From: Patescibacteria group bacterium
Lineage (GTDB): Bacteria; Patescibacteriota; Patescibacteriia; UBA1558; S5-K13
Reading direction: 5' to 3'
Assembly: GCA_028692545.1 (NCBI GenBank)
Contig: JAQUXC010000003.1
Location: 47,827 to 111,826 of the forward strand
DNA: 64,000 bases
The position numbers and the translations under genes were made by a program. Positions within the stretch are counted from its first letter, which is position 1; every line of letters begins with the position of its first letter. The notes under the pieces were generated by a model that worked only from the letters and a program-made list of their open reading frames with translations, had not been told where the DNA came from and searched no databases. Below, one piece after another: positions 18,293-52,936 of this stretch.

Positions 18293-18310
18293 ATATTTTA
18301 TAATAATTAT

Positions 18311-29306: not shown

Positions 29307-29383
29307 TTCGCGGTAGCTCAGTTGGTTAGAGCGACTGGCTGTTAACCAGTAGGTCGTCGGTTCGAACCCGACCCGCGAAGCCA
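29307..29383 (+). tRNA. tRNA-Asn (anticodon GTT)
   Basis: TTCGCGG-TA-GCTC-AGTTGGTTA-GAGC-G-ACTGG-CTGTTAA-CCAGT-AGGTC-GTCGG-TTCGAAC-CCGAC-CCGCGAA-G-CCA; 77 nt cloverleaf with a terminator downstream. Confidence 0.9.
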
Positions 29384-30982
29384 ACCTGTATGAACAGAGG
29401 TTAAAGCCTCTGTTTTTGCTTTATTTAAAGGGTGTTTATCCAGTTCTAACCTTAAGTATTTTTGCTCTAATTCTTTATAGTCATTTTCTATTGGAATAAA
29501 CCAATCATTGAACCCTATAGACAGCTTTTTATCAGTAATTGTTATCATTTTTCCTATTCCAGATAGAATTTCTCTCTTTAGTTCTAACCTATTTTCTACC
29601 CTTGCCTTTAAGAACGCTTTATGGGCATAAGTAGCAAAATTAAAAGTTTTCTCTGCTAACTCTAACCAGTTTTCAGCCCTTGCTTCTGTGCTACGCAAAC
29701 ATTCTTTCATTTTTGATATTTTGCTTGTAAGTTCATTTTTCTCTTTTAAGAAGGCATCATCATCAATAAGTTGGCGATATCTCATTTTAGTAAGTTCATC
29801 TAATTCATTTTGTGCTTTTACTAGATTTGTATGTTGCATTTCATAAATTTTAGACCTATCTTCTATTTCAGTATCATTTTTTTTATTTAAATCTTCTAAT
29901 GCCCAATGTAGAAATTCTGGGAGAATTGTTAATCTCCCCATTTCTCTTTCAATCTCTAATTCTAAACTATCTTCTTTAACGCAACTTTTTTGAGTGCAAT
30001 TGACTTTTCTTGTCTTTCTTGTGCAATGATAGTAAGTGTATTGTTTTATTTCTTTAGTTGTTTGTAGTAGTTTATTTTTTGTTTCCGCAGTATATAGACA
30101 TCCACACTCTTTACATCTAATTAAACCAGTAAATGCAAATTCTTTACTTTTTGGTTTTATAATGCCTTTTCTCCCAAGAAGTCTTTGAACTCTATCATAT
30201 TCTTCAAGCGTAATCATTGCTTCGTGTTTACCTTCATATTCAATTCCTTTGTTTTTAATAATCCCAGCATAAAATGGATTTTTAAAGACATCATAAATAC
30301 CACTATATGAAAGAGGATTACTACCCATTCTTTTAAATTTACGAGTTCTAAAACCCCATTCATTGTTTGCAATATTTAAAATTTTTCTGGGAGTATAATT
30401 GCCAGTTAACATTAAATCCCACATATTACGAACAAGGCTAAAACGTTCAGGGTCCTTTATAATAGTTTTATTTTCTCTTTCATTAAGGTAGCCAAGTGGT
30501 GGAACTCCATTTTGCCATCCAGAATTTACTCTTTTTAGTATTCCACGTTTAGTATCTCTACTTAAATCTAAAATATATTGATTGGCTTGACCAGTTTCTA
30601 CGCTAAATAATAATACGTTATCGCTTGGGAGATATTCTTTTTCAATTGTTCTAATTGATTTTATTATTCCTTGTTGTAGGAGCCATCCAAGTTTGCCACT
30701 GTCAATTGGATTACGTGTTAATCTGTTTAAAGCCCAACATAGTATTCCATTAGCTTCCCCATTTTCAATTTTTTTTATCATCTCGTCAAATACAGGACGA
30801 TTATTTGGTTTTTTAGCTGATTTCGCTTCTGTAAATACTGTTTTAGTATTTATGTCTAGATTTGTAGCTAATTTTTGTAAAGTTTCTGTCTGGTCTTCAA
30901 TAGACTGAACTTGTTTATCTTCGCTTTCAGAAGATTTTCTTGCATACACAAAGTATGTAATTTTGTTTTGTTCTAATTTCAT
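29342..30982 (-). CDS. large serine recombinase (resolvase/invertase catalytic domain + recombinase domain + zinc ribbon)
   Basis: N-terminal YARKSSESEDKQVQSIEDQ (catalytic Ser); resolvase fold; recombinase domain; Cys4 ribbon CKECGC...YYHC; coiled-coil C-terminus; 546 aa. The last 14 codons are read from tRNA-Asn sequence. Confidence 0.85.
   Translation of the reverse strand: MKLEQNKITYFVYARKSSESEDKQVQSIEDQTETLQKLATNLDINTKTVFTEAKSAKKPNNRPVFDEMIKKIENGEANGILCWALNRLTRNPIDSGKLGWLLQQGIIKSIRTIEKEYLPSDNVLLFSVETGQANQYILDLSRDTKRGILKRVNSGWQNGVPPLGYLNERENKTIIKDPERFSLVRNMWDLMLTGNYTPRKILNIANNEWGFRTRKFKRMGSNPLSYSGIYDVFKNPFYAGIIKNKGIEYEGKHEAMITLEEYDRVQRLLGRKGIIKPKSKEFAFTGLIRCKECGCLYTAETKNKLLQTTKEIKQYTYYHCTRKTRKVNCTQKSCVKEDSLELEIEREMGRLTILPEFLHWALEDLNKKNDTEIEDRSKIYEMQHTNLVKAQNELDELTKMRYRQLIDDDAFLKEKNELTSKISKMKECLRSTEARAENWLELAEKTFNFATYAHKAFLKARVENRLELKREILSGIGKMITITDKKLSIGFNDWFIPIENDYKELEQKYLRLELDKHPLNKAKTEALTSVHTGWLRGSGSNRRPTG
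29395..29418 (+). terminator. rho-independent terminator after tRNA-Asn (lies inside the recombinase ORF on the opposite strand)
   Basis: cagagg-ttaaag-cctctg + tttttg. Confidence 0.6.
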
Positions 30983-31006
30983 ATTTTTATAATTTATAAA
31001 TTAAAA

Positions 31007-31123
31007 GGACGACTATGGTTGACCCAATTCCGCTTTTCCGAAGAATTGCTTTATTGGCATAGTCGCCCTTTTAAGACAACAAAGCAGTAAAAAACTTCGG
31101 AATTTTTTTCGGATTGGGTCAAC
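31007..31123. repeat. nested imperfect inverted repeats immediately upstream of the recombinase gene (candidate recombination/regulatory site)
   Basis: ggacgactatg(31007-17)/catagtcgccc(31058-68); gttgacccaattccg(31018-32)/cggattgggtcaac(31110-23); ccgaag(31038-43)/cttcgg(31095-100). Confidence 0.5.
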
Positions 31124-31138
31124 GTATATATTATAACA

Positions 31139-31747
31139 TTATTTTCTAATGTTGATAAACTTGCCAAAAGATTTATCTAGGCGAGATACCATCATTATAA
31201 AACTTTGTTCAAAGTCTTCTCTCATTTTAATTAAACGTTTAAATTTTCTTGTCGGCTTACCGTTATAATAAAATCTTCTAACTTCTTTTTCTGCCCTTTC
31301 AATACTTGCAGAAGATAGAGAACTTCCTCTAAATTTGCCACCCCTCATTTGAGAGGAATAAGCTATATTTCCGCAATGTCTACACCCAAACCATTTTCCT
31401 ATACTGAAAAGCACACCGACTCGTCTCCCACAAACTTTTCCATTTTTTATCAAAGGACATATAAACCAATATCTTTTACCGCCATAATTACATTGAGTAG
31501 TAGTTAATTTAATTTTATAATCCATATTTTCTTTTTCTTTTGTATCCCTGTTTGTTTGTGTATATCGCAATACAATATTATTGTCTTTATTATTTATAGT
31601 AATAATAAATCCAATACTATTCTCATTCTGATTTATCCCAGAGACCCATCTAATGCCTCCATATTGAAGACCCCCATTAAGATACCCGTGTTTTTTTAAC
31701 CAAGATATTTTTAAACTATTACTCCATTCTGCTTCTTGTTTCGCCAT
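31139..31747 (-). CDS. hypothetical protein with Cys-rich zinc-finger-like segment
   Basis: 202 aa; CNYGGKRYWFICPLIKNGKVCGRRVG...CRHCGN. Confidence 0.4.
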   Translation of the reverse strand: MAKQEAEWSNSLKISWLKKHGYLNGGLQYGGIRWVSGINQNENSIGFIITINNKDNNIVLRYTQTNRDTKEKENMDYKIKLTTTQCNYGGKRYWFICPLIKNGKVCGRRVGVLFSIGKWFGCRHCGNIAYSSQMRGGKFRGSSLSSASIERAEKEVRRFYYNGKPTRKFKRLIKMREDFEQSFIMMVSRLDKSFGKFINIRK

Positions 31748-31900
31748 ATATTTTTTATAAATCCGCCGAAATCATTAGAGATTATATTTATACATTATTT
31801 AGATAAAAGATTATTTGATGTCTAATAAAGGGATTTTTGGATTTAATTTTAATTTTTTTAATTAAGTATTTTATTATCATTTTACGAAACGAACCCATTT

Positions 31901-32431
31901 TTATTCTTTTTCTGTATTTATATCGACAGCCATAGGTAGAGGAACTTTCTCTCCCATACGAGTAGCTTGAATACGTTGTAATTCGTGAAGAGCTTTGTAT
32001 ATGCCACGTTCAATACTTGCCTCATAACGAATAAGTTTTCCGTATGTATCACGATTAGCAAAATCATAACTCAATGCACCCCCAAGTGTTTTATCAGCTT
32101 TACCCATTGAAAAACTTATACTATTACTCATATCGTTATCCATCATCTCTTTTTCTATTTGCATTACTCGTTTTAATCTCCATACATTGGCTGTTATTCT
32201 ATCAACTAAGACTAATTCAAGCTCTGTTTTTGGCTCTAATTCAGCTCTTAATTTTTTGCCTATATCAATAAGAGCTCCCTCATCTTCTCCGTCTAATAAA
32301 ATCTCTTTACTTAACAAACCGTGTTTTAAGGCATTGTATTTGCTTATTGCCTTACCTTCTTCAGTTTTTACTCCCCCAAGTTTTGCATTTTCTCGGTTTG
32401 CATCTAACTGTTTTTGTGATATTTCGTTCAT
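31901..32431 (-). CDS. hypothetical protein
   Basis: 176-aa ORF, charged and helical; no family recognised. Confidence 0.35.
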   Translation of the reverse strand: MNEISQKQLDANRENAKLGGVKTEEGKAISKYNALKHGLLSKEILLDGEDEGALIDIGKKLRAELEPKTELELVLVDRITANVWRLKRVMQIEKEMMDNDMSNSISFSMGKADKTLGGALSYDFANRDTYGKLIRYEASIERGIYKALHELQRIQATRMGEKVPLPMAVDINTEKE

Positions 32432-32467
32432 ATTTTTATTGATTATTTTGTAAAAAAATGTCTAATT

Positions 32468-33745
32468 TTAATTGTTAGTTTTTACCCCACTATCTAACTC
32501 ACTATTGTTTTGGTTATTTAATGAAGCGAATGGAGTGGTGGGGCAGATGAGTATTTTTCTTTTATCATTTACGTCTTGTTCTTGGACTATAAGTCCAGCA
32601 TTTTCTAACATCGGAATAATCTGTTGTCTGACAAGCCAATCTGCTAAAATTCTGCCAAAGATTTTTAGATGTCCCTGTGTTATTTCTCGTCTTGTTAGTC
32701 CGACTCTATCTTTAGCCTCCCATATTGGAAGTATCACCTCTTTATAAATTTGATAGATAAAAGGCGGTAGATTAAATTCTTGACTGTCAGAAATAGCATT
32801 CCAAACTTCAAAAGCATTATCTACATCTTCTTCGTTGGCTATTATTGTAGAGCCATCTTTTTGTCTATACCATAAATTTAACAATGCAAAGGCTTTTATT
32901 AGAGAGATAATTCTCCCAATATCTCTTTGGTTTCTAGGCTTTAATATTTTGTTTTCATTAAAAAACAGATTTTCTATTTTTTGAGGACAGCCAATTTTAA
33001 TATTGTCAATTTCTGCTAATCTAATAGCTTCAATTCTTTCTATAAGTAATTTACGTTTAGAATTATTTTCTAACGAAAAATTATAGAAACCACTGTCAGT
33101 CTCTTTTCTTATTTTTTGATGTATTGCTTCTTTGATTTTTTCTTTGTTAGTTTCTGGACTTAATAAAAGAAATCTTGTTGTTTCTTGTTCGTCTATTCTT
33201 AGCCCAGCTGTGCAAAAGATTACCGAAGGAAATCCTTTAAGAAATATATTTTTAGTTCTTAGTCCCGCTCTTTGAGATTTGTCAGTAATTTTTATACAGA
33301 TTTCTTTTTTATCGTGAGATAGTAGAGGTCTTAGATGTTGGAGTAGTAATGTGTGTGGTTGGTCAAGAAAAATTAAAATCTTTCTTGATAAATCCACTAT
33401 ATAGCCATTTTTCTCTTTGCTAAATTCGCCCACATCGTGAAAAAAAGCAGTTGGACTGCAATAGCCAACTTCAATAATATCTTCTTTTGGGAATAATTGA
33501 GCGATTTCAGTGGGTATATATGATTTACCAGTAGAGGACGGGGCATTGAAACTTATATTCAACTGGGAGCTTTCTGTATATGCCGATAATTCGCACAGAA
33601 AGGTTATTAGTTTGTTATTTTCATCTTTTTTGATAGTTATACCTAAAATATCAATTAACTCCTTAGGAGTAAGTATATTAAATTTAGGGGCATCTTTTTT
33701 TGACTCGATATTGTTTGGGTCATTTGTAATTGTAATATTTTCCAT
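32468..33745 (-). CDS. P-loop NTPase, possibly a replication/primase-associated (D5/P4-C-like) protein of the element
   Basis: Walker A-like FNAPSSTGKSY and downstream IFLDQPH (Walker B-like). 425 aa, located in the mobile-element backbone. Confidence 0.4.
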   Translation of the reverse strand: MENITITNDPNNIESKKDAPKFNILTPKELIDILGITIKKDENNKLITFLCELSAYTESSQLNISFNAPSSTGKSYIPTEIAQLFPKEDIIEVGYCSPTAFFHDVGEFSKEKNGYIVDLSRKILIFLDQPHTLLLQHLRPLLSHDKKEICIKITDKSQRAGLRTKNIFLKGFPSVIFCTAGLRIDEQETTRFLLLSPETNKEKIKEAIHQKIRKETDSGFYNFSLENNSKRKLLIERIEAIRLAEIDNIKIGCPQKIENLFFNENKILKPRNQRDIGRIISLIKAFALLNLWYRQKDGSTIIANEEDVDNAFEVWNAISDSQEFNLPPFIYQIYKEVILPIWEAKDRVGLTRREITQGHLKIFGRILADWLVRQQIIPMLENAGLIVQEQDVNDKRKILICPTTPFASLNNQNNSELDSGVKTNN

Positions 33746-33755
33746 ATTTTTAATG

Positions 33756-33965
33756 TTAACTTTTATTAGGGTTGTTTGGGGCGTAAATCTCTTTACGGCG
33801 TTCTTGAACTTGATTATATTCTTCTTGCGTCATTGGTTTATAAACAAGCTTAATAAGTCGGATGAGTTTTATTCCCTGTTCGTATGCTTCTTCTCGGCTA
33901 ATATCCTTACCGAAACGATTTTTATAAAGCATTTGATATTTTGTTATTTGCTCATCTGACAACAT
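33756..33965 (-). CDS. hypothetical small protein
   Basis: 69-aa ORF co-directional with neighbours. Confidence 0.3.
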   Translation of the reverse strand: MLSDEQITKYQMLYKNRFGKDISREEAYEQGIKLIRLIKLVYKPMTQEEYNQVQERRKEIYAPNNPNKS

Positions 33966-33969
33966 AGTT

Positions 33970-34269
33970 TTATTCCGAATAAATTCTATTTTTTAACATT
34001 TTTGTGTTGTCAAAAAATGTCCTTGCTTTGACCTCTAATTTATTTGCCCAATATTTGTCTGCCATCAATTCAATACCCTTTTCTAAAATAAATATAAATT
34101 GAACCTTTTTGATATTAGATTTATTTAAAGACACAAGCTTAAAACCAACACTTATAAGTGCGGAACTACACCCCAAATCCGTAGTAAAAAAATATCTATT
34201 TTTACTATCTAGAGGCATATATTCAAATTCTCTAATCTGTTTTTTTTGTAATATTTTTTTCATAATCAT
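33970..34269 (-). CDS. hypothetical small protein
   Basis: 99-aa ORF, 4 bp after the preceding gene. Confidence 0.3.
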   Translation of the reverse strand: MIMKKILQKKQIREFEYMPLDSKNRYFFTTDLGCSSALISVGFKLVSLNKSNIKKVQFIFILEKGIELMADKYWANKLEVKARTFFDNTKMLKNRIYSE

Positions 34270-34304
34270 TTTTAGTTAATTAAATAGTTCTAAAATATTT
34301 AATC

Positions 34305-34333
34305 AATAAAAAAACCGATAGTCGTCCTATCGG
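34305..34333 (-). terminator. rho-independent terminator on the minus strand (hairpin ccgatag-tcgtcc-tatcgg followed by a T7 run on the minus strand)
   Basis: It would end a minus-strand transcript coming from 34579..35424 or a 3' sRNA. The loop contains the ATAGTCGTCC motif also present at 31007-31068. Confidence 0.45.
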
Positions 34334-34578
34334 TGAAAGTTGATTATGAATAATAAAAAAAGCCAAAACAACAAACACCAGTTCGGGACGAACTGTTATC
34401 TATTGTCTTGGCTCATTTAGCTACCCATTAAGGGGTAGATTACCTAAATAGTCTCAACAAGGCTTGCATTATATCAAACCCTTTTAAATGGGTGAGCTAT
34501 ATAATTTAAGCTATCTTATCGATTTTTTAATGAACTTATATTTAAAATATAATCTATCTAATATTTTATGTCAAGTCT

Positions 34579-35424
34579 TTATTTTTTGTTTATTAAAAAT
34601 TTAATCACACCTTGTTTATTTATAGAGAAGTAATTCTCTTTTCTGCATTTGTAGCATACTTTGAATTTATTGATACGAAAGTTATTTAAGTAATCTGATA
34701 TTTGTTTTTCATTATTAAGTTTTTCTTTAAGAAAGTGTTTGCATTCGGCACATCTCCAATCTACTTCAGGATTGTTTTTTAATAATAGTTTAATTTTCCC
34801 AACCTGTGGTGTAATAATTTCCTTGCGGATATTATTATTTAAATTTTCTAGAACTGACACATTTAAAATTATAAATTTTGTAGGAACTTCTGATATGCCT
34901 AAAATCTGTGGTCTTTTTGTTTCCCCAAATTCAACATCTGGTTCGTTTTTATATAATATTTTTATAGCTCCAGAGTAATCGGCTAACCATAAACAAATTT
35001 CTTTATACTTATTTCCTATATTAGCAAAGTCTATTGCCCCTTTGGACGTTTTAAATTTTAAAATCAAAGTCAATGTTTCAAGAATATAATTACGTCCATT
35101 TTGTCCACTATATTTTTTAAGTAATCCGTAATATTTATTTTTTGATATTTTTATAAATTTATCTAATTCTTTTTTATTATAAGAAAGATGAATGTATTTA
35201 AGATTATAGGTGTCGTATTTATCGTCTTCATCTTCAAATTTTATCAGTTTTCTTTCTTCAAGTCTTTTTAGTATATCTACAATTTCATCAATTGTCAGTT
35301 TCGGAAAGTCTTTTGGTTCTATGGTTATGGTATTCAAAAACTTTTTTTCATCCCTGTTTATTATTAGAAGTAATTTTTCTGCAATTAGTAGGTTTTTATT
35401 TTTTGTATCTATTCCTTTTGGCAT
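34579..35424 (-). CDS. hypothetical protein with C-terminal zinc ribbon
   Basis: 281 aa; WRCAECKHF...CYKCRKENYF. Confidence 0.4.
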   Translation of the reverse strand: MPKGIDTKNKNLLIAEKLLLIINRDEKKFLNTITIEPKDFPKLTIDEIVDILKRLEERKLIKFEDEDDKYDTYNLKYIHLSYNKKELDKFIKISKNKYYGLLKKYSGQNGRNYILETLTLILKFKTSKGAIDFANIGNKYKEICLWLADYSGAIKILYKNEPDVEFGETKRPQILGISEVPTKFIILNVSVLENLNNNIRKEIITPQVGKIKLLLKNNPEVDWRCAECKHFLKEKLNNEKQISDYLNNFRINKFKVCYKCRKENYFSINKQGVIKFLINKK

Positions 35425-35612
35425 AATTTTGTAATTATAATTTTAATATTGCAGGTAGATTTTATCTCCTGTATAATAAATACTATCAAATGTTAAGTAT
35501 TAAATCAAAACAGAGAAAATGAGAAATAGGCATAAAACACTAGGTTTTAATGCCGATTATTTTACAATTTAATCGCCTAACCCTTATGAAGTAAAATTCT
35601 AAGGTATGGTAT

Positions 35613-35751
35613 AAAACCCAACCACGATAGTAAGCTCCTCATCGAGCAACTCGTGGTTGGGTTATGCAGGGAAACTTGCATAGGTAGTCAGCAGTGATTA
35701 TCTGTTCGTGGGGAGCTTTTTGTTTCCTACGAAACTCAAAACCCAACCACA
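35613..35751 (+). promoter_or_regulatory. structured 5' leader of the Type III R-M operon with alternative pairings
   Basis: aaaacccaaccacg (35613-26) pairs with cgtggttgggtt (35652-63). A second aaaacccaaccac (35738-50) abuts the mod ATG. gctcctc/ggggagc + ttttt forms a terminator-like element at ~35709-35720. Confidence 0.4.
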
Positions 35752-37533
35752 ATGAAAAAATTACAATTACAATCTGCGGATAAACTTTCTGCAAAGAATG
35801 TTCATATTGAAGATTTCGAAAGCAAACAACAGAAATTGTTTCTCAAAGAAATTGAAAATCTTAAAAATGAAATTAAAAAACTTAAATCAAGAAAAAAATA
35901 CGGACTTGTATGGGAGGACAAACCAGAACAAGTTGTTGATATGTGTAAGGATAAATTACCTGTTCTAGTAGAGGAAAAAAATAAAGAAATTAAGGCCGAT
36001 AAAAACAAACCAATTGATATTTTAATTGAGGGCGATAACTATCACTCCCTTTCTGTTTTAAATTACACTCATAAGGGGAAAATAGATGTTATTTATATTG
36101 ACCCACCATACAATACTGGCAATAAAGATTTTATTTATAATGACCGTTATGTAGACAAAGAAGATAATTATCGTCATTCTAAGTGGCTCTCCTTTATGAA
36201 TAATAGGCTAAGGCTTGTAAAAAATTTATTAAAAGAAGATGGGTTAATTTTCATTAGTATTGATGACAACGAAGCTTCTCAACTTAAATTGTTATGCGAC
36301 GATATTTTTGGTGAACAGAACTTGCTGGATATTTTTTATTTACAAGTTAGATATGCAGGAAAATCACTTAATGAGAAAGACGATTTTCAAAAATTGATTG
36401 AACAAGTTTTAATTTATGCAAAAAATAAACATAAATTTAAACCAAATAAACCCAGTGATATTTATTCACTTGCTAAGTTTAAGTTTAGGGTGGTTGAAAA
36501 AACTAGGGGTAAAAAAATAAAACTTGGAAATAAAGAAGTGGAGATATTTAAGAAAGGAGAATATGAGATTATTGAAGAAAAAGAAGAAAATATAAACCTA
36601 TTAAAAGCAACTTGGGCTAGCGGTAGTGTTCTTAAGGGAAATACTTCTGGAAAATTTTTTCATACTTATTTAGAGAATAGGAGAGACATAGATGGACTTG
36701 GAACTTTATATAAAGTATATGGAATTGGTGAAGATGGTATTGGCTATAGATATTTTACTGGTCCAAAGAAAAGCACAGCTACAAAGGGGATATTTTATAC
36801 AGGCATTCCAAATTTTAGAAGGACTGATATTGAAGGGGGAATAGATAGTCATAAAGAACGTCCAATAGTTAACTTTTATGATTATAGTGGGGATTTTGGC
36901 AATATAAGACACGAGGGAGCCGTTGATTTTAGGAGTGGTAAGAAACCAACTAAAATGCTTAAGGAACTTATTAACTTGAATGGGAACAAAAAATCTGTGG
37001 TTCTAGATTTTTTTGCAGGTTCTGGTTCTACTGGACACGCTGTTGAGATATTAAATAAAGAAGATGGAGGAGAACGCCAATTTATTCTCTGCACAAGTAA
37101 TGAAGGTGATGTTTGCACAAAAGTTTGTTATCCAAGAATTAAAAACGTATCTAAGGATTTCAATAATAATGTTAAGTATTTTAAAACTGATTTTGTAGAC
37201 GCAAAACAAACTGACCGTAATAAGAAAAAACTTATTGATAAATCTACAGAAATGCTTTGTTTAAAAGAGTCTTGTTTTAAATTAGTTAAGAAGGGTGAAA
37301 GTTTTAAGATTTTTACGAATAATAAAAATAAATATTTAGGTATAGTTTATGATGATACAGGAATTGAGTCATTTAAAAAAGAAGTTAATAAATTAAATAA
37401 GTCAATTATCACTTATATTTTTTCTCTCGACGATAGTGCTAGAGAGGAAGAATTTGAAAATATAAAAAGATTGGTTGAGTTAAAGCCCATACCAGTCGTT
37501 ATCCTTAATGTTTATAAAAGAATATTCAAATGA
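35752..37533 (+). CDS. mod: Type III restriction-modification system methyltransferase (Mod), N6-adenine beta-class
   Basis: Motif IV IYIDPPYNTGNKDFIYNDRY precedes motif I FFAGSGSTGHA (beta-class order); 593 aa; overlaps the downstream res gene by 4 nt. Confidence 0.85.
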   Translation: MKKLQLQSADKLSAKNVHIEDFESKQQKLFLKEIENLKNEIKKLKSRKKYGLVWEDKPEQVVDMCKDKLPVLVEEKNKEIKADKNKPIDILIEGDNYHSLSVLNYTHKGKIDVIYIDPPYNTGNKDFIYNDRYVDKEDNYRHSKWLSFMNNRLRLVKNLLKEDGLIFISIDDNEASQLKLLCDDIFGEQNLLDIFYLQVRYAGKSLNEKDDFQKLIEQVLIYAKNKHKFKPNKPSDIYSLAKFKFRVVEKTRGKKIKLGNKEVEIFKKGEYEIIEEKEENINLLKATWASGSVLKGNTSGKFFHTYLENRRDIDGLGTLYKVYGIGEDGIGYRYFTGPKKSTATKGIFYTGIPNFRRTDIEGGIDSHKERPIVNFYDYSGDFGNIRHEGAVDFRSGKKPTKMLKELINLNGNKKSVVLDFFAGSGSTGHAVEILNKEDGGERQFILCTSNEGDVCTKVCYPRIKNVSKDFNNNVKYFKTDFVDAKQTDRNKKKLIDKSTEMLCLKESCFKLVKKGESFKIFTNNKNKYLGIVYDDTGIESFKKEVNKLNKSIITYIFSLDDSAREEEFENIKRLVELKPIPVVILNVYKRIFK

Positions 37534-39713
37534 TTAAATTAAAAGATTATCAAAAAGAGGCAGTAGAAAATTTACATCAAAAAATAGAAAAATCTTTAAA
37601 GTCTCCAGAAAGTGAAGTTGTAGTATTTCAAGCCCCAACTGGTTCTGGTAAAACAGTTATGGTTTCTGCTTTATTAAAAGAATTTGTAAGAAATAGGCAA
37701 GATAATAATAAATTTTCTTTTGTTTGGGTTTCTGTAAGAATGTTGCACGAACAAAGCAAAGAAAAACTAGAAAGCTATTATGAAGATGATGGGAATTTAA
37801 GATGTTCTTATTTTGAAGATTTAGAAGACCGTAAAATTGATGAAAATGAAATATTATTTATCAATTGGCACAGTATAAACAAAAAGGATATAAATATTTT
37901 TATAAAAGACAATGAAAAGGATAATAATTTAAGTAATATCATAAAGAATACTAAAGAAGACGGCAGATTTATTATTTTGATTATAGATGAAAGTCATCAT
38001 ACCGCAGGTGCAGAAAAATCAAAAGAGCTTATTGAGATTATTGGTCCCAAAATAACGCTAGAAGTTTCAGCGACACCACACTTAACAGAAAAAGTTTCGG
38101 AGATAGAAAAGGTTCGTTTGTCTGATGTTAAGGCAGAAGAAATGATTAAATCTGAAATATCAGTTAATCCAGAGTTCCTTAATATTAAAATTGGTTTAAA
38201 AAGTAGTGATGAGATAGTTATAGAGCAAGCTTTAAAGAAGAGAGAAGAGTTATTAAAGATGTATAAAAGGGAGGGTTCAAAAATAAATCCCTTAATGCTT
38301 ATTCAACTCCCAGATAATAAAAGTAATTTAGTGAGTAAAAAAGAGGGGGTGATAAAACTTTTAAATAAAAAAGGAATAACTGAAAAAAATGGAAAACTTG
38401 CCATCTGGTTATCTGAGGATAAATCTGATACTTTGCCAAACATTGAAAAAAATGATAATGAAGTTGAGGTCTTGATATTTAAACAAGCAATTGCTTTAGG
38501 TTGGGATTGTCCAAGAGCTTCGATTTTAGTGATTTTCAGAGAGTCAAAAAGTTTTACTTTTACAATCCAAACGATAGGTAGAATAATGAGAATGCCAGAG
38601 TTAAAATATTATTCAAAAGAACCAGAATTAAATGTTGGATATGTTTTTACAAATTTACCCAACATAGAAATTACGGAAGATTACGCAAAAGACTATATAA
38701 CTATTTATGAGTCAAAAAGAGATAGCAAGCTTTATAATAATATTTCTTTGCCATCAATTTATCTAAGAAGACAAAGAGAAAGAACTCGTTTATCTGGAGA
38801 ATTTGTGAAGATTTTTACAAAAATTACCGAAGCAAATAATTTTAAGAAACAAATAAATCTTAAGCCTTCAAAAATTATAAATCCTATAATAGCAGAGGGT
38901 AAAATTATCGATATTGATAAATCAGGTGAAATTGAACATAAAGGAATGCTTAAAGTATCTTTAGATGAAAAAGAATTACAAGACAAGTTTGATAGATTTA
39001 TAGTGCAAAATTGCACTCCTTATTCACCAGCGGACTCAAGCGATAGAATGAAAACGGCGATTTATCAATTTTTTAATAAGGAATTTAAATTTGATAAATA
39101 TGACTCTAAGGTTCAAAGAATGGTTTTAGGTAAAGAAAATATACAACTTTTTGTTAATATTCTTAATTTAGCTAAAGAAAAATATAAGAAAGAGGTTGTG
39201 GAGAAATTAAGTGAAAAAAGAGAACTACAAGCAATTTCTAATTGGGAGGTGCCAATATTTATAACTTATAATAGTAGATATAAAAAGGAAGAACAACCTA
39301 TTTCTGTTATGAAACCATTTTATGTTGCAACTCAAAGTGAGCCAGAAAGATTATTCATAGAGTTGCTTAATAATTCAAAAAAAATTAAGTGGTGGTATAA
39401 GAATGGTGAGGCAGAAATAAAATATTTTGCAATTTTAAGGTCTGATGATAGAGCATTTTATCCAGATTTTATAATTCAATTTAAAAACGGAACTATTGGA
39501 ATATTTGAGACTAAAAGTGGATTTACAGCGGGTGAAGACGCAAAAGAAAGAGCTGAAAGTTTGCAAAGATATATTAAGAAACAAAATAAGTCTGGTAAAA
39601 AAATTATTGGTGGTATAGCTATCTATGTCAATGGAACGTGGCGATACAATGATAATGATAAATATAAATACGACCCAAATAATTTAAGTGAGTGGAAAAT
39701 TTTGAGTTTGTAA
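37530..39713 (+). CDS. res: Type III restriction enzyme Res subunit (helicase + PD-ExK endonuclease)
   Basis: Walker A VFQAPTGSGKT, DEAH-like IIDESHH, helicase C motifs, C-terminal nuclease motif YPDFIIQF...IFETK; 727 aa. Confidence 0.85.
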   Translation: MIKLKDYQKEAVENLHQKIEKSLKSPESEVVVFQAPTGSGKTVMVSALLKEFVRNRQDNNKFSFVWVSVRMLHEQSKEKLESYYEDDGNLRCSYFEDLEDRKIDENEILFINWHSINKKDINIFIKDNEKDNNLSNIIKNTKEDGRFIILIIDESHHTAGAEKSKELIEIIGPKITLEVSATPHLTEKVSEIEKVRLSDVKAEEMIKSEISVNPEFLNIKIGLKSSDEIVIEQALKKREELLKMYKREGSKINPLMLIQLPDNKSNLVSKKEGVIKLLNKKGITEKNGKLAIWLSEDKSDTLPNIEKNDNEVEVLIFKQAIALGWDCPRASILVIFRESKSFTFTIQTIGRIMRMPELKYYSKEPELNVGYVFTNLPNIEITEDYAKDYITIYESKRDSKLYNNISLPSIYLRRQRERTRLSGEFVKIFTKITEANNFKKQINLKPSKIINPIIAEGKIIDIDKSGEIEHKGMLKVSLDEKELQDKFDRFIVQNCTPYSPADSSDRMKTAIYQFFNKEFKFDKYDSKVQRMVLGKENIQLFVNILNLAKEKYKKEVVEKLSEKRELQAISNWEVPIFITYNSRYKKEEQPISVMKPFYVATQSEPERLFIELLNNSKKIKWWYKNGEAEIKYFAILRSDDRAFYPDFIIQFKNGTIGIFETKSGFTAGEDAKERAESLQRYIKKQNKSGKKIIGGIAIYVNGTWRYNDNDKYKYDPNNLSEWKILSL

Positions 39714-39717
39714 ATAT

Positions 39718-40188
39718 ATGAAAAAGCCACGAGAAATAATAACCGAAGATTTCGTTCAAAAGACCATAATAAAATATTTAGAATTAAAAGGGTGGGGTAA
39801 ATCGTTAAAGAGTTCTGAATTGTGGGAGCAGGGTGTTGATATAAAAGTTTGTAATAATCAATTTTCTAGATATTGGCTTATAGAAGCTAAGGGAGACCCA
39901 TCAATCAATGTAAAAAATCCAAGTGGAAGTCAAAGTAGTAGTTTTAATTCAGCTTTAGGGCAGATTATTACAAGAATGCACAGAAATGGTAAAAGAGGTT
40001 ATAAATATGGTTATAAATATGGTGTAGCTCTCCCAGTGTCATTTAGAAGTATGGTCATAAGAAAAATGTCTTTTGATGTAATGGATAAATTAAACCTTTA
40101 TCTATTTTTTGTTGATAGTCTTGGGAGAGTTGAAGAAATAAACTATAAGGATTTAAAAAATCTAAGAACAAAGAAAAATGGAAAATAA
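39718..40188 (+). CDS. small PD-(D/E)xK-fold nuclease-like protein
   Basis: GVDIKVCNN...WLIEAKGD fits the D...E-x-K restriction-endonuclease-like core; 156 aa; 4 bp after res. Confidence 0.5.
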   Translation: MKKPREIITEDFVQKTIIKYLELKGWGKSLKSSELWEQGVDIKVCNNQFSRYWLIEAKGDPSINVKNPSGSQSSSFNSALGQIITRMHRNGKRGYKYGYKYGVALPVSFRSMVIRKMSFDVMDKLNLYLFFVDSLGRVEEINYKDLKNLRTKKNGK

Positions 40189-40372
40189 AAAATCATCAGA
40201 GTGGACTCAAGAAGAACGGGATAGGATAGTTGGTTGTTTTAGGATACTTATTGAAATGGATAAAAAACAAAATCCAGATTTATATAAACCAAGTATTTTA
40301 GAAGTAGAGGATAATTGATTGTATACAAGAATAAGTATATTATAAATAATATCAATTGAAGCCATAGAAAAT

Positions 40373-41479
40373 ATGCAAAAATCAAATAAAATCATAGGAA
40401 TAGTTTTAGTATCAGTATTATTGGTAGCTCTTATTTTCATTATAATTTTCAAAGAAAAGGATATAAAAAAGAATTATAATAATTTCCAAATAGAGTTAAA
40501 TAATAAAGATGAGAAGCAGGATATCTCTAAGAGTGAAATTGGTATTTTATACAATCAATATATTGCTGATACAGAAAATAAAGAAAATGAGTTAAAGTCA
40601 TTATTAAAGCAAGATAAAGATTTAAAATTTATTCCTATTGAAACACTGTATCAAAGTGAGCTAACGAATAATAATCCAAAGTATCCAACATTGAATTGCG
40701 GCAAAGAAAAAGTTGAATTTACATTTATTCCAGACCCATATAGAAAAGAGGCAACTGAAAATGTTATTTTTGAAGATGGGACAGGTATTCAAGTTATAAA
40801 CAAAGAAACCAATAAAATACTTCAACAAGAAAAAGTGTATGGCATTTTGGACATAGAGAAATTGAATTTCAACAATTTAGATTATTATATAACAAGTGAA
40901 TATACGGGTGGTGCCCATTGTTGTTTTGAAGAAAGAGTGATTGTTTGTAAAAATGGTAAATTTAATATTGGTGATGTTGTTAATTATGGCAGTAATGGTG
41001 AATTGGGAGATTTTTTTATAAAAAACAATCAGATTTATTTTACGAAATCAAATGGTAGATTTGATTATTTTAATCTTAGCTATACGTCATCTAGGGGAAT
41101 GGAGTATCTAGCCTTTTATAAGTTAGATACTAATTCTAATAAATTCATAGATGTTTCTAAAGAATTTCCAGATTATTATTCTAAATTAGCAAAACAACAA
41201 AATGATTGGCTAATTAAATTAAAAAAATATCAACCAAGTTTTTTTAGTGGAGCAGAAGAATTGTGGTATTACCCACTGATTAAAAGATTAACAGCTAATT
41301 ATTTATCTGGAGAAAGTAAAGAGATTTATGAAAAACAATTCTTAGATGATTTTAATTATTTTATAGATGGTTCTTCTGTTGATAAACAACATTTCTTATT
41401 TCCTATAGAAAAAAAAGATATTAAGAAGATATTTGATGATGCAATGAAAATTTTAATAGGAGAATATACAACAACATAG
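40373..41479 (+). CDS. hypothetical membrane-anchored protein
   Basis: 368 aa, single N-terminal TM helix, no family recognised. Confidence 0.4.
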   Translation: MQKSNKIIGIVLVSVLLVALIFIIIFKEKDIKKNYNNFQIELNNKDEKQDISKSEIGILYNQYIADTENKENELKSLLKQDKDLKFIPIETLYQSELTNNNPKYPTLNCGKEKVEFTFIPDPYRKEATENVIFEDGTGIQVINKETNKILQQEKVYGILDIEKLNFNNLDYYITSEYTGGAHCCFEERVIVCKNGKFNIGDVVNYGSNGELGDFFIKNNQIYFTKSNGRFDYFNLSYTSSRGMEYLAFYKLDTNSNKFIDVSKEFPDYYSKLAKQQNDWLIKLKKYQPSFFSGAEELWYYPLIKRLTANYLSGESKEIYEKQFLDDFNYFIDGSSVDKQHFLFPIEKKDIKKIFDDAMKILIGEYTTT

Positions 41480-41679
41480 GTGTTATTATGGGGTTATTGC
41501 TAGTGAGTATGCGGGTTGTGGATAACTTATTGACATTATTATTTATATGGTGTATATTGTAAGTAATAAATCCTTATCATTTGCTTCGGCTATGATAAGC
41601 AACAAGAACCTTACGGCTCTTGTTTTTTATTTAATGGGCTAGTATTATATATTCATACTATAATTTATCATTAAGCTGT

Positions 41680-42237
41680 ATGAACAATAAAAGAGTAGCT
41701 GTTTTTATAGACAATAGTAATGTTTTTGGAAATATGCGAGATTTGAAAAAATCAGGAATAAATTGGGTTTGTTTGTATGACCCAGAATTTTTAGCAAAAA
41801 AATTAGCTGGAAATAGAGAATTAGTGTATACAGGATTTTATTGCACTAGACCACCAGCATATCTTTTAAAGGGAAATAATGATGAAAAATATAAATTTAA
41901 TACTGCTAATAAATATTACAGCGAAATAGAAAAAAATCCTTCTGTATCCGTGAAATATGGAGACTTAAAGGGAACTAGAGGCAATCTAATAGAAAAAAAT
42001 TTAGATACTCAAATAAGCTCTGATATGGTAGAAATGGCGGCGTTTGATAAATATGACATCGCAATTATAGTTTCTAATGATGGGGATTATAAAAGTGCTA
42101 TTGAAAGCACTAAGAAATTTAATAAAAAAATAGAGGTTTTATTTTTTCAGGGTAGCTTATCTATGTCTTTAAGAAGTGTAAGTGATATAACAAGACGAGC
42201 TAGATGTTCTTATTTTGTGAAATTAGATGGTATGTAG
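41680..42237 (+). CDS. NYN-domain (LabA/DUF88-like) putative ribonuclease
   Basis: RVAVFIDNSNV...D..IIVSNDGDY pattern of NYN/PIN-like nucleases; 185 aa. Confidence 0.7.
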   Translation: MNNKRVAVFIDNSNVFGNMRDLKKSGINWVCLYDPEFLAKKLAGNRELVYTGFYCTRPPAYLLKGNNDEKYKFNTANKYYSEIEKNPSVSVKYGDLKGTRGNLIEKNLDTQISSDMVEMAAFDKYDIAIIVSNDGDYKSAIESTKKFNKKIEVLFFQGSLSMSLRSVSDITRRARCSYFVKLDGM

Positions 42238-42349
42238 AAATAGTGAGTAGAGTGGTGGGGTAAATTACAAATCACCATACATTCTCAAGTCAGGAATATA
42301 AATATACTCAGTTTGTCTTTGAATAATAGTTCTGATATTCCGAACTACA

Positions 42350-42361
42350 CGAAGCCAACCT
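42350..42361. repeat. 12-bp exact repeat of the tRNA-Asn 3' end/flank (candidate attR core)
   Basis: cgaagccaacct is identical to 29376..29387. The following bases are also similar (acct-gta vs acctagta). A GC-rich 12-mer is unlikely by chance in this AT-rich DNA. Confidence 0.4.
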
Positions 42362-42444
42362 AGTACATGTTTCGAGCAACCGGCCTGCCTCGGCGTAGCC
42401 GTAGGCGAAGACGGGGTTGCGTCGAAAATCACATATTAGAGCAT

Positions 42445-42479
42445 AAAGACGTTTTTTATCAAGGCGTCTTTTTGTTTTT
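42445..42479 (+). terminator. rho-independent terminator
   Basis: aaagacg-ttttttatcaagg-cgtcttt + ttgttttt. Confidence 0.55.
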
Positions 42480-42546: not shown

Positions 42547-45489
42547 ATGAATATCACAGATCATCAAGCTAAATATTTTGCTTATGAGCTCACTAAACGT
42601 TGTGCTTCAGATAGTCTAGAAAAATTATCATCAACTCTCTCAAATTCTCAAGTAGATTTGAACCCACATCAAATAGAGGCAGCTTTATTTGCTTTTAGAT
42701 CTCCACTTTCTAAAGGAGCTATTTTAGCTGATGAGGTTGGTTTAGGAAAAACAATTGAAGCTGGTCTTGTAATTTCTCAAAAGTGGGCAGAGAGAAAAAG
42801 AAAAATACTTTTAATAGTTCCTGCTAGTTTAAGAAAACAATGGAATTCAGAGCTCCAAGAAAAATTTTTTATTCCATCAATTATTTTAGAAGCAAAATCT
42901 TTTAATCAGTATATAAAAGAAGGAAATCTTAATCCATTTAATCAAAAAGACCTTATAGTAATCTGTTCATATCATTTTGCAAAAGGAAAATCTGTTTATA
43001 TAAAACAAACGAATTTTGATTTAGTTATTATTGATGAGGCGCATAGATTGAGAAATGTTTATAAAAATAATAATGTAATCGCCCGTGAGATAAAGGACGC
43101 AGTTCAGGCATATCCAAAAATACTTCTTACAGCCACACCATTACAAAATTCTTTACTTGAATTATATGGATTAACAAGTATTATTGATGAACATATCTTT
43201 GGAGATTTAAACAGCTATAAGGCTAATTATGCAAAAGTATCTAGAGAACAAGATATATATGAGAGTGAACTTGGAATGGTAGAACCAAGACAAGAGATGT
43301 TTGTTGATTTACGAAATAGACTTAAACCAATTTGTATTCGTACTTTACGTAGACAAGTTTTAGAATATATAAATTATCGTGATAGAAAACCAATTACTCA
43401 AGATTATATTCCAACAGAACAGGAAATTGAGTTGTATGATGGAATGACAGAATATTTACAAAGACCCAAATTGTATGCGCTACCATCAAGTCAACGCCAA
43501 CTTATGACGCTTATTTTAAGAAAACTTTTGGCCTCTTCTTCTTTTGCTATTGCAAGTACTCTAGATGGTCTTATTTATAAATTAGATAAACTTATAGAAC
43601 ACATCAGACAAAATTCAGTTGTTAAAATTGATGATTTACCAAAAGAAATAGAAGAGGACTATGAAACATATTCTGAAACTGTTGATGAGTGGATTGATAA
43701 TGAAAAAGATGAGAACGAAAATAAGATCAATGAAAAGAAAAATAAATTAAATATTGAAGATATACAACAAATTAAAGAAGAAAAAAAAGATTTAGAAGTA
43801 TTTAGAGATTTAGCTAAATCTATATTCAAGAATTCAAAAGGAGAGTCACTTTTAATAGCTTTAAAGAAGGGCTTCGAAATGACACAGGATCTTGGAGCTC
43901 AAAAAAAAGCTGTTATTTTTACAGAATCTAGAATTACGCAAAAATATTTATTAGATTTATTATCTGAAAATGGATATCAAGACAAGATTATTTTATTCAA
44001 TGGCACAAATAATGATCAAAAATCAAAAGAAATATATTTAGAATGGTTGAAAAAGAATAAAGATACTGACAAAATTACTGGCTCTAAAACAGCTGATTTA
44101 CGTGCGGCAATCGTAGAATATTTTAAATCAGATGCTGAAATTATGATCGCTACTGAAGCAGCAGCAGAGGGTATAAATTTACAATTTTGTTCTTTGGTTA
44201 TAAATTATGATCTTCCGTGGAATCCCCAAAGAATTGAACAGAGAATTGGTCGTTGTCATCGTTATGGACAAAAACACGATGTTGTCGTGGTAAATTTTGT
44301 AAATAGAAAAAATGCTGCCGATCAAAGGGTCTATGAACTTTTAGATCAGAAATTTATGTTATTTAAGGGTGTATTTGGTGCAAGTGATGAAGTTCTTGGA
44401 AATATTGAATCTGGGGTAGATTTTGAAAAAAGGATAGCTTCAATTTATCAATCTTGTCGTACCGAAGAAGAAATTAATAAAGCATTCGATTCTCTTCAAG
44501 CAGAAATGGATGAATCTATTCAAGAAGGAATTAAAAATGCAAAAGAGAAACTACTTGAAAATTTTGATGCAGATGTACACGAAAAATTAAAGATAAATTT
44601 AAAAGAAAGTAGGGCTTATTTAGAAACATATGAAAAATGGTTATGGGAAATCTCACAATACTTTTTGAAAGACAAAGCCAATTATTCAACTGATGATTAT
44701 TCTTTTACATTAAAAGAAAATCCATTTCCAGGTGAAGATATTGATGAAGGTCCTTATAGAATTGGAAAAAATATTGAAGATGCACATATTTATCGTCCGG
44801 GACATCCATTAGCAATTCGCATTTTAGATAAAATAAAATCAAATCAGTTATATCCGTGTGAAATCGTTTTTAACTATTCTAACTATGGACAAATTATTTC
44901 CCCAATCAAGGAATTAATCGGCATTTCTGGTATAATGAAAGTATCCCAATTAACAATTGATTCATTTGAGACGGAAGATGTTGTGTTGGTTACCGCAATA
45001 AATGATAGGGGCAATGTTATAGAAGAAGATATCGCAAAGAAGCTTTTTGCCTTAGATACTGAAATATTGCAAAATAAAATTGAGATAGAATCAGAAAATA
45101 TAGATAAAAAAGAAAAAGAAAAAGTTAAAATTATTACTACTAATATTTCCGAGAGAAATAGCGAATTTTTTGATGAAGAAGTTGACAAACTTGATAAATG
45201 GGCTGAAGATGTAAAAAAGAGTTTAGAAATAGAGCTTAGAAGAATGGATATAGATATAAAAACAATGAAAACAAATGCAAAGAAAATTTTAAACTTAGAA
45301 GAAAAAGTAAAATTACAAAGAGAGATAAAAAACTTAGAAAAGAAAAGAAATGAGATGCGTCAAAAGCTTTATAAAGCCCAAGATGAAGTAGATGTAAAAA
45401 AAGAAAATTTACTTGATAAAGTAGAAGCGCAACTTAATCAAAAAATATCTCTAACTACACTATTTGTTATTAAATTTAAAATAATATAA
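42547..45489 (+). CDS. SNF2-family helicase/ATPase with ~340-aa coiled-coil C-terminal extension
   Basis: Motif I LADEVGLGKTIEAG, II IIDEAHRLRN, III LTATPLQNSLLELY, VI NPQRIEQRIGRCHRYGQ; 980 aa. Confidence 0.85.
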   Translation: MNITDHQAKYFAYELTKRCASDSLEKLSSTLSNSQVDLNPHQIEAALFAFRSPLSKGAILADEVGLGKTIEAGLVISQKWAERKRKILLIVPASLRKQWNSELQEKFFIPSIILEAKSFNQYIKEGNLNPFNQKDLIVICSYHFAKGKSVYIKQTNFDLVIIDEAHRLRNVYKNNNVIAREIKDAVQAYPKILLTATPLQNSLLELYGLTSIIDEHIFGDLNSYKANYAKVSREQDIYESELGMVEPRQEMFVDLRNRLKPICIRTLRRQVLEYINYRDRKPITQDYIPTEQEIELYDGMTEYLQRPKLYALPSSQRQLMTLILRKLLASSSFAIASTLDGLIYKLDKLIEHIRQNSVVKIDDLPKEIEEDYETYSETVDEWIDNEKDENENKINEKKNKLNIEDIQQIKEEKKDLEVFRDLAKSIFKNSKGESLLIALKKGFEMTQDLGAQKKAVIFTESRITQKYLLDLLSENGYQDKIILFNGTNNDQKSKEIYLEWLKKNKDTDKITGSKTADLRAAIVEYFKSDAEIMIATEAAAEGINLQFCSLVINYDLPWNPQRIEQRIGRCHRYGQKHDVVVVNFVNRKNAADQRVYELLDQKFMLFKGVFGASDEVLGNIESGVDFEKRIASIYQSCRTEEEINKAFDSLQAEMDESIQEGIKNAKEKLLENFDADVHEKLKINLKESRAYLETYEKWLWEISQYFLKDKANYSTDDYSFTLKENPFPGEDIDEGPYRIGKNIEDAHIYRPGHPLAIRILDKIKSNQLYPCEIVFNYSNYGQIISPIKELIGISGIMKVSQLTIDSFETEDVVLVTAINDRGNVIEEDIAKKLFALDTEILQNKIEIESENIDKKEKEKVKIITTNISERNSEFFDEEVDKLDKWAEDVKKSLEIELRRMDIDIKTMKTNAKKILNLEEKVKLQREIKNLEKKRNEMRQKLYKAQDEVDVKKENLLDKVEAQLNQKISLTTLFVIKFKII

Positions 45490-45493
45490 AGAT

Positions 45494-47164: not shown

Positions 47165-47168
47165 TATT

Positions 47169-49991: not shown

Positions 49992-49994
49992 TTT

Positions 49995-51341: not shown

Positions 51342-51371
51342 GAATATTTATTAATCGTATATTTAGATAAC

Positions 51372-52670: not shown

Positions 52671-52852
52671 ATCGTCATTTGTTACTTATTACATGGACAT
52701 TGATGACGCAGAACGGGTAGTAAGTCCAGTAGGTAAACTGTTGGTAACTCGACTTCATTAATGTTTATTTTTGAGCTATAATAAAAATGCGAAACCATAG
52801 AAGAAATTACGTGAAGATTTGTAAAAATCCTATTTTTACCTATTTGAGACAA

Positions 52853-52936
52853 GGCTCGGGCACACCGACCAAAACTCAAGTAGGGTCTTCACGGATACCT
52901 TTTGTGGTTTCGCAGGTCGGGTGTCCGTTTTTGTTT
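52853..52936. repeat. GC-rich long stem-loop followed by a T-run (structured element near the recombinase)
   Basis: ctcgggcacaccgacc ... ggtcgggtgtccg then tttttgtttt; ~45-nt loop; GC-rich in AT-rich intergenic DNA. Confidence 0.4.

Follow-up and report, generated by a model that had tools for sequence, protein, structure and literature searches.

The 3′ ends of tRNA genes are the classical targets of tyrosine integrases. Serine integrases, which are the main tools of site-specific genome engineering, are to our knowledge generally thought to avoid tRNA genes. It was reported that in the mycobacteriophages BPs, Brujita, and Charlie the attachment site of the free form (attP) lies in the 3′ end of a gene, that the 3′ end of a tRNA gene serves as the target, and that integration replaces the C-terminus of the encoded protein (PMC9262239). 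In BPs, attP is located in the 3′ end of the repressor gene, and integration removes an ssrA-like degradation tag (PMC9262239). The present analysis concerns an integrative element at a tRNA-Asn gene in a stretch of 64,000 nucleotides (nt) from a Patescibacteria group bacterium (assembly GCA_028692545.1, contig JAQUXC010000003.1, positions 47,827 to 111,826). This whole stretch is referred to as the window, and positions are counted from its first letter. We regard it as very probable that the locus is an integrated and probably still mobile serine-integrase element in tRNA-Asn, whose borders are two copies of a 12-bp repeat (12-mer) that are read as its left and right junctions (attL and attR). 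The features at its two ends are as follows.

29307–29383, plus strand: intact tRNA-Asn(GTT) gene with encoded CCA (ARAGORN; Rfam RF00005, 72.6 bits)
29376–29387, no strand assigned: attL identity block CGAAGCCAACCT, with a predicted 2-bp crossover at 29378–29379, corresponding to tRNA nt 71–72
29392–29415, plus strand: predicted intrinsic terminator hairpin and T-run for the rebuilt tRNA gene (terminator scan), antisense to the codons of the peptide KTEALTSV in the integrase gene
29342–30982, minus strand: integrase gene (int), encoding a large serine recombinase of 546 amino acids (aa) in its integrated form (Pfam Resolvase, Recombinase, and Zn_ribbon_recom; PHROG integrase, 2e-68)
42265–42348, minus strand (the int strand): displaced 3′ tail of int, 27 codons (VVRNIRTIIQRQTEYIYIPDLRMYGDL) and a stop codon (tblastn of the family tails)
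42350–42361, no strand assigned: attR identity block CGAAGCCAACCT, with a predicted crossover at 42352–42353
42370–42427, plus strand: imperfect GC-rich hairpin in host DNA beyond attR (−28 kcal/mol, z = −2.5)
42445–42471, plus strand: native intrinsic terminator of the tRNA-Asn unit, now 13 kb from the tRNA (terminator scan)

The 12-mer CGAAGCCAACCT covers the last four bases of the acceptor stem, the discriminator base (G), the CCA end, and 4 trailer nt. Exactly two copies are present in the window, with matches in 0 of 100 shuffles. Because an int-type tail is encoded beside the second copy, the two copies are interpreted as attL and attR of an element predicted to span 12,974 bp (window 29378–42352). 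The overlap between the integrase open reading frame (ORF) and the tRNA gene amounts to 13 codons and the stop codon (42 nt), antisense to the 3′ part of the tRNA, and the last 10 residues of the protein (GSGSNRRPTG) and its stop are the antisense of the host-derived part. According to the junction analysis, the tRNA is host-derived up to nt ~71–72, while the part from ~72/73 to A76, including CCA, is supplied by the element. The reconstructed attP junction reads ...TTCCGAACTACA-CGAAGCCAACCT-GTATGAACAGAGG... (42349 to 29388 via the 12-mer), and the reconstructed junction of the empty host site (attB) reads ...CCCGACCCG-CGAAGCCAACCT-AGTACATGTTTCGAGC... (29375 to 42362 via the 12-mer). A preliminary description of this DNA had proposed an integrative element at tRNA-Asn with the tRNA 3′-end 12-mer recurring at its border, a 546-aa serine recombinase ORF running through the predicted terminator and 42 nt into the tRNA, and the targeting of a tRNA by a serine integrase. 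All of these proposals were borne out: the copy at 42350–42361 is the sole second copy in the window and is adjoined by the displaced tail, the same split of int is found in relatives, and no tyrosine recombinase was detected in the scanned ORFs.

The evidence that carries this interpretation is the displaced tail, which directly adjoins the second 12-mer. When int and the tail are joined through the repeat, the frame reads ...HTGWLR-VVRNIRTIIQRQTEYIYIPDLRMYGDL*, giving a protein that ends in ...WLRVVRNIRTIIQRQTEYIYIPDL, with attP within the last codons of int (...V-H-T-G-W-L-R | V-V-R-N...). In related material (loci, contigs, and genomes labelled L001, L083, and so on), int and the tail are found uninterrupted and without a tRNA in contigs L094, L151, L160, L099, and L118, and the tail is located at the far end of the integrated elements in L087 (9.7 kb away), L156 (10.7 kb), L146, and L135 (~7 kb, at tRNA-Trp). 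The DNA following the tail in L151, a free form, is collinear with the DNA following the displaced tail of the integrated L146 (81% aa identity), which is the configuration predicted for attP. The ratio of nonsynonymous to synonymous substitution (dN/dS) of the tail is 0.12–0.15 (about 0.13), also for codons 10–25, which lie beyond any plausible integrase-binding arm, and 20 of 25 third codon positions are variable versus 9–11 at the first and second positions. Since the tail is under purifying selection, it is predicted to be translated and functional in the free form. The int gene thus contains attP, and integration has traded its last 27 codons for 10 tRNA-antisense codons. Several tails end in -YANA, -YASA, or -YAHA, and others in -YGDL, -FANL, or -YNKL; a role of the tail as a degron is only a conjecture, because many tails do not end in -YA(N/S/H)A. 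With regard to methods, the direct-repeat search (k ≥ 10) was unsuitable for most relatives, whose identity blocks are shorter, and tblastn with the tail worked instead. No displaced-tail remnant was found elsewhere in the window by tblastn.

Displaced int tails were also observed in tandem with their junctions, three in L139 (671–2346) and two in L145 (2505–3656), which suggests repeated integration at the same tRNA with older elements decaying.

The proposed events can be outlined briefly. Recombination between attP and attB would cross over within tRNA nt 71–74. The tRNA gene would keep its body, and the element would supply the final few 3′ nucleotides with the CCA, a new trailer, and a dual-coded terminator; the native trailer (the GC-rich hairpin and the native terminator) would be pushed 13 kb away to attR. 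The integrase gene would lose the conserved 27-residue tail, left behind at attR, and gain 10 arbitrary residues antisense to the tRNA, and its 3′ end would then meet convergent transcription from the tRNA promoter. Excision would rejoin the tail to the body of int and yield an integrase of 563 aa.

The same architecture was surveyed in 76 distinct related loci from metagenomes and genomes. An overlap of the integrase with a tRNA gene is present in about 56 of them, the targets being tRNA-Asn (~45), tRNA-Gln (7), and tRNA-Trp (4). Unintegrated attP forms account for a further 13, and the remainder are cut by contig ends or belong to no clear class. More than 3600 homologues of the integrase were found, the best 120 of which are 65–89% identical; the few with a named source are from Paceibacterota and Curtissbacteria. 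Nearly all homologues reach a common ...TEAL(T/A)SVRAxW(L/Q) and then diverge into tails with 'DSN', the antisense translation of the tRNA T-loop GGTTCGAATC, while a minority share the conserved end xVNNVRTIIQQQNEYIYIPDL.... Read antisense, the CCA of the tRNA gives TGG, the conserved W codon; 'WL' matches G73-A72 (Asn and Gln) and 'WQ' matches G73-U72 (Trp). The integrase family is large, distributed across the candidate phyla radiation (CPR), and apparently undescribed in its unusual attP-in-int architecture; full-text literature searches found no description of it, which is not proof of absence.

About 10 of the ~45 targeted tRNA-Asn genes hold a group I intron in the anticodon loop. Such introns were noted at the loci L146 (intron at 11621–11824), L124, L145, L147, L152, L159, L093, L104, L105, and L149. 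The introns are 190–250 nt long (Rfam RF00028 in L146), and ARAGORN misses the genes or calls them tRNA-Thr. Integrase tails ending in ...PIGYTYPLIS, for which ARAGORN gave no clear tRNA, proved to be antisense to such intron-bearing tRNA-Asn genes, and a new target was rejected. In L105 and L149, an HNH-type ORF is situated just upstream of the conserved intron core and is a candidate intron ORF (the tRNA 5′ exon was not located). A different junction was seen in L153 (~11600), where only the final 10 nt of a tRNA-like acceptor end (GGGGGAGCCA) follow the 3′ end of int and a tRNA body is absent; this may be pseudo-site integration or a rearranged junction.

The attL/attR identity blocks measure 12 bp in the window, 5 bp in L087 (GCTCC), 7 bp in L156, 4 bp in L135 (GCAG), and 7 bp in L139, lengths that fit serine integrases, and the part common to these five elements confines the crossover to tRNA nt 71–74. 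The 12-bp identity in the window is unusually long for the family (4–7 bp elsewhere) and is partly fortuitous, because the element codons CTT-CGT (L-R) happen to match the host acceptor stem. Over nine native or reconstructed attP sites, the dyad-symmetry score peaks at nt 71–72. This dinucleotide reads TC, or TT in the window and AG in the Trp elements, all three of which are non-palindromic, and it is most likely the exact crossover dinucleotide. An earlier candidate, a dyad centre at G73–C74 (a palindromic GC, chosen by eye), was replaced by this scored centre.

The segment that would serve as the terminator of the rebuilt tRNA gene encodes, on the int strand, the most conserved C-terminal peptide of the integrase, KTEAL(T/A)SV. 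In 60 distinct family sequences, its 9-bp helix is 95% paired, and both-sided (compensatory) changes occur at 3 helix pairs (11 cells), a level reached by 0 of 500 shuffles. For example, the stem CAGAGGC/GCCTCTG is replaced in L117 by TGGACGC/GCGTCCA, and the peptide becomes QMDAL. This segment is best read as a predicted terminator of the rebuilt tRNA gene that is dual-coded with the integrase. CCA is not natively encoded in several hosts (e.g., L087, L135, and L145).

The integrase itself carries a catalytic domain (PF00239, 7.5e-16), in which the R-x-S catalytic motif is invariant in the family and R15, K16, S17, and S18 are invariant among 50 homologues. Matches to PF07508 and PF13408 follow, with C290, C293, C295, C320, and C329 invariant in the same 50 homologues. 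The only PDB match was a single sequence at E = 1.4e-5. The AlphaFold model of P0015, a homologue with the full-length attP form, recovers the catalytic, recombinase, and zinc-ribbon domains and a long coiled coil at moderate confidence, with long helices (354–462) between the zinc-ribbon strands at a predicted local distance difference test score (pLDDT) of 70–89. In all features that could be tested, the protein is a large serine integrase by sequence, and its recombination activity is predicted from that membership. No tyrosine recombinase or Phage_integrase domain was detected by Pfam in element ORFs of at least 99 aa; a 69-aa ORF was covered via PHROGs only.

The window is 100% identical to contig JAQVYI010000001.1 of GCA_028708725.1, a metagenome-assembled genome (MAG) of the Patescibacteria group. 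The left flank of the element contains dnaG and rpoD, and the closest rpoD genes in GTDB representatives (59–68% identity) come from Falkowbacteria- and Moranbacteria-like CPR MAGs. In L083 (contig Ga0208460_10000019), the integrase is 97% identical to that of the window: the element DNA is 92% identical between the two, whereas the host flanks are only 79% (rpoD) and 72% (dnaG) identical, and because the element is more alike than its flanks, these values indicate horizontal movement. Unoccupied tRNA-Asn genes with ordinary trailers are present in the related CPR genomes L004, L007, and L021. The element is probably still active at present.

Several observations weigh against this picture. 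No empty site or excised circle of this element was found, the three other assemblies that carry it (L001, L083, and L164) all showing the integrated form, and none of the attP-form contigs has overlapping ends as proof of a circle. The element yielded no candidate for a recombination directionality factor. The dyad symmetry of attP is weak (9/22 on average versus ~5.5 expected) and is absent in the window's own attP (4/22). In the P0015 model, pLDDT stays under 50 over most of the final 48 residues (517–538 and 549–564), so the predicted structure of the tail is uninformative. In addition, an rpoD-based search of GTDB genomes returned distant relatives only (≤68%) and no empty site of this lineage, and the one other occurrence of an identical NYN-domain cargo protein is another integrated copy. 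Exact look-ups of the integrase and the rpoD product of the window returned no entry.

Part of this would suit a fixed, immobile relic, in which the int ORF and the repeats are fossils of an old insertion inherited vertically. Every available assembly of the element shows the integrated state, and in L001 the element and its flanks are about equally diverged (79% vs. 72–82%), which fits vertical co-inheritance. However, the backbone ORFs and the displaced tail are all intact, with the tail under selection, the element is far better conserved than its host flanks in L083, and free attP forms of close family members exist, which makes a relic unlikely. That the ORF-tRNA overlap and the 12-mer are a coincidence, or the traces of a since-lost tyrosine integrase, whose classical targets are tRNA 3′ ends and whose common cores resemble a 12-bp direct repeat, is very improbable and already contradicted by the family survey, since the overlap is family-wide, the shuffles yielded no match, the identity in other members is just 4–7 bp, and the scanned ORFs of at least 99 aa contain no Phage_integrase domain.

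The interior of the serine-integrase element consists of a backbone next to int and a cargo, including defence genes, on the opposite strand, with an RNA between them.

31139–31747, minus strand: p202, backbone, beside int in 48 family loci; no Pfam or PHROG family
31901–32431, minus strand: p176, backbone, in 19 family loci
32468–33745, minus strand: p425, backbone, P-loop protein and probable replication ATPase, in 36 family loci
33756–33965, minus strand: p69, backbone, in 44 family loci
33970–34269, minus strand: DUF5659 protein, backbone, in 33 family loci (Pfam DUF5659)
34579–35424, minus strand: p281, hypothetical protein with a C-terminal zinc-ribbon-like motif (weak Pfam match below the curated threshold)
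35574–35702, plus strand: LOOT RNA (Rfam RF03000), 75.5 bits versus a gathering threshold of 46.4, model positions 1–121 of 121
35752–39713, plus strand: type III restriction-modification (R-M) cargo, mod at 35752–37533 and res at 37530–39713 (Pfam N6_N4_Mtase and ResIII)
39718–42237, plus strand: cargo genes for p156, p368, and an NYN-domain protein (41680–42237; Pfam NYN; PADLOC HEC-09, 1.3e-11)

Among the backbone proteins, p425 has many homologues (P0243–P0258) that are ~720 aa long and carry an N-terminal Toprim (primase-type) domain; p425 corresponds to their C-terminal two-thirds. Besides CPR, these Toprim-fused homologues occur in MAGs of Margulisbacteria, Saganbacteria, and Planctomycetota. 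Together with p425, they point to a putative autonomous replication of a plasmid-like free form; the element is probably plasmid-like and would replicate as a free circle. In contrast to the shared backbone, p281 is lineage-specific and occurs elsewhere only in L083, and the cargo varies across the family. The R-M genes are also matched by PADLOC (MTase_III, 2.6e-89; REase_III, 1e-17). Neither phage structural genes nor conjugation genes were detected among the element proteins by Pfam and PHROGs, the PHROGs matches being confined to the integrase and the NYN protein. Searches of IMG/VR with the single integrase and with a 50-sequence profile returned no relatives, so the element is not catalogued as viral.

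The LOOT RNA, which belongs to an orphan small RNA family, recurs as a conserved part of these elements. It was detected in 15 of the 20 family loci with an interior of at least 9 kb, always opposite to int and between backbone and cargo, and it was absent from 80 rpoD control loci. In the window, it is transcribed in the direction of the cargo. Above-threshold matches include L083 (5281–5410), L085 (3632–3754), L087 (3194–3319), and L146 (6005–6127).

With regard to the GC-rich segment beyond the second 12-mer, the preliminary description had placed a folded segment immediately after the repeat and suggested an att remnant or a small structured RNA. An imperfect hairpin is indeed present and is one of few intervals of the window (29% GC) with a 50-nt stretch of at least 56% GC, but it begins 8 nt after the 12-mer and does not abut it. 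The idea of an att remnant did not hold, because the hairpin lies on the chromosomal side of attR; it is the native tRNA-Asn trailer of the empty site and not element DNA. The proposed check against the Rfam covariance models gave no family over 42370–42427, even at E ≤ 10. In the empty site, the hairpin would lie right behind tRNA-Asn and ahead of the native terminator. Its 29-nt core, GCCTCGGC-N-T-N-GCCGT(T)AGGCGA(A)GACGGG, is found elsewhere only in the related genome L001, with one exact and one degenerate copy upstream of tRNA-Asn. These are part of a 125-bp tandem duplication (L001 6137–6330, minus strand), each unit of which combines part of the tRNA 5′ end with a GC-rich hairpin that is homologous to window 42387–42415 and with a promoter-like spacer. 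No further copies were found by exact, degenerate, and fuzzy (≤5 errors) searches of 2 Mb of related loci. The native trailers at attR of five relatives are mutually unrelated and carry ordinary terminators, which means that the integrase can do without the hairpin.

Two explanations of the hairpin were weighed. The favoured one, to which we give an even chance, is a lineage-specific trailer RNA or repeat, that is, a small host RNA of the 3′ external-transcribed-spacer type cut from the tRNA-Asn precursor, or a repeat resembling repetitive extragenic palindromes or miniature inverted-repeat transposable elements (REP/MITE-like). It accounts for a stable hairpin between a tRNA and its native terminator and for the homologous copies that flank the tRNA-Asn gene of L001, where part of the tRNA 5′ end precedes each copy, and it is consistent with the comparable GC-rich double hairpin and 15-nt tRNA-Ser 5′ duplicate that flank the GIY-YIG gene at 18023–18363. 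However, only three copies are known, the z scores are modest (−1.4 to −2.5), and no Rfam family matches. A role in recombination, as an outer arm of attB/attR or as the att site of a second recombinase in a tandem island at 42.4–52.7 kb, is improbable. In its favour, ~17 nt separate the predicted crossover from the start of the hairpin, which is where a typical attB of 40 bp would end, a defence island and another large serine recombinase follow the hairpin, and a Logan assembly breaks inside it; yet the outer attB arm is not conserved, given the unrelated trailers of the five relatives, no repeat is shared between the hairpin and the DNA around the second recombinase, and the window holds no other remnant of a displaced tail.

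The GIY-YIG gene is a 90-aa ORF (Pfam E = 1.5e-14; 18023–18363, minus strand) whose stop codon lies inside the 5′ end of tRNA-Ser(GGA) (17949–18037). The GC-rich double hairpin is located upstream of the ORF, at 18305–18349, and the 5′ end of the tRNA-Ser is exactly duplicated over 15 nt (18349–18363 vs. 18024–18038). The locus resembles a mini-element of ~325 bp whose insertion point is nt 15 of tRNA-Ser.

A defence island follows directly after attR (42547–52670) and comprises, with the genes beyond it, the following features.

42547–45489: DrmD-like SNF2 helicase
45494–47164: type III methyltransferase
47085–49991: type III restriction enzyme
49995–51341: PD-T7-3
51372–52670, minus strand: second, different large serine recombinase of 432 aa, which ends the island
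53548–55360: helix-turn-helix (HTH) protein and ParB-methylase, after the second recombinase

The region 42547–52670 may be a second island; att sites for its recombinase were not found. At 52845–52930, upstream of an ORF at 52975–53484, the arms CGGGCACACCGACC ... GGTCGGGTGTCCG form a GC-rich inverted repeat with a T-run behind it, which may be a structured leader or a terminator; Rfam gave no gathering-level match at 52845–52930. An S-adenosylmethionine (SAM) riboswitch (RF00162, 52.2 bits, 56618–56729) upstream of metK (56807–57745) is ordinary.

Returning to the element, it is possible, though on balance doubtful, that attP within int represents a distinct strategy that acts as a switch, in which the free full-length integrase integrates, the tail-less form is altered in stability, level, or directionality, LOOT is functional, and the family is a main integrative element of CPR. 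Under such a switch, the 3′ end of the integrated int mRNA would be opposed by transcription of the tRNA, and LOOT would be a regulatory or replication RNA of the element family. The idea is thereby raised that no separate factor might be needed to control directionality or expression. With its self-rewritten C-terminus, the integrase would be the counterpart, in bacteria and among serine recombinases, of the archaeal 'suicidal' integrases and of the integration-dependent switches of mycobacteriophages. If the conserved 3′ end of a tRNA indeed serves as a half-site, the integrase could be a broad-host landing-pad enzyme. Since the family targets the near-universal 3′ ends of tRNA-Asn, tRNA-Gln, and tRNA-Trp with few bp of identity, natural attB sites would be expected in many organisms, including CPR without genetic tools. 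In addition, the orphan LOOT RNA is given a genomic home, a coding sequence doubling as an opposite-strand terminator is documented, and a widespread family of mobile elements that carry defence systems between CPR genomes is defined.

Compared with known systems, the integrase resembles phiC31, Bxb1, A118, TP901-1, SprA, and CcrAB in the order of its catalytic, recombinase, and zinc-ribbon domains, the last with a coiled-coil insertion, and it resembles the phiC31-type large serine integrases in its short att sites with few bp of identity between attP and attB. Unlike these enzymes, it targets a tRNA 3′ end, has its attP within its own coding sequence so that integration alters the protein, carries the tRNA terminator dual-coded in its gene, and shows very low similarity to solved structures. 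The element also resembles the tRNA islands of tyrosine integrases (P4-like, lambda-like, and Islander-type), in which insertion likewise occurs at a tRNA 3′ end that the element restores, int lies beside the tRNA, and defence genes are found in the cargo. It differs from them in that the enzyme is a serine integrase, the identity is 4–12 bp versus at least 25 bp, and the crossover is situated at the very end of the acceptor stem (nt 71–74).

Two further systems share parts of this architecture. The SSV1-type 'suicidal' tyrosine integrases of archaeal viruses and plasmids share an attP in the int ORF, a tRNA target, and a partitioned int; however, their int is split into two large inactive parts, whereas here 27 codons are detached and the catalytic and DNA-binding domains stay intact. 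In BPs, Brujita, and Charlie, the remodelled protein is the repressor and the integrase is of the tyrosine type, whereas here it is the serine integrase itself that is remodelled, with a tail containing …EYIYIPDL…. In functional terms, the integration-dependent immunity of phage BPs is the nearest analogy.

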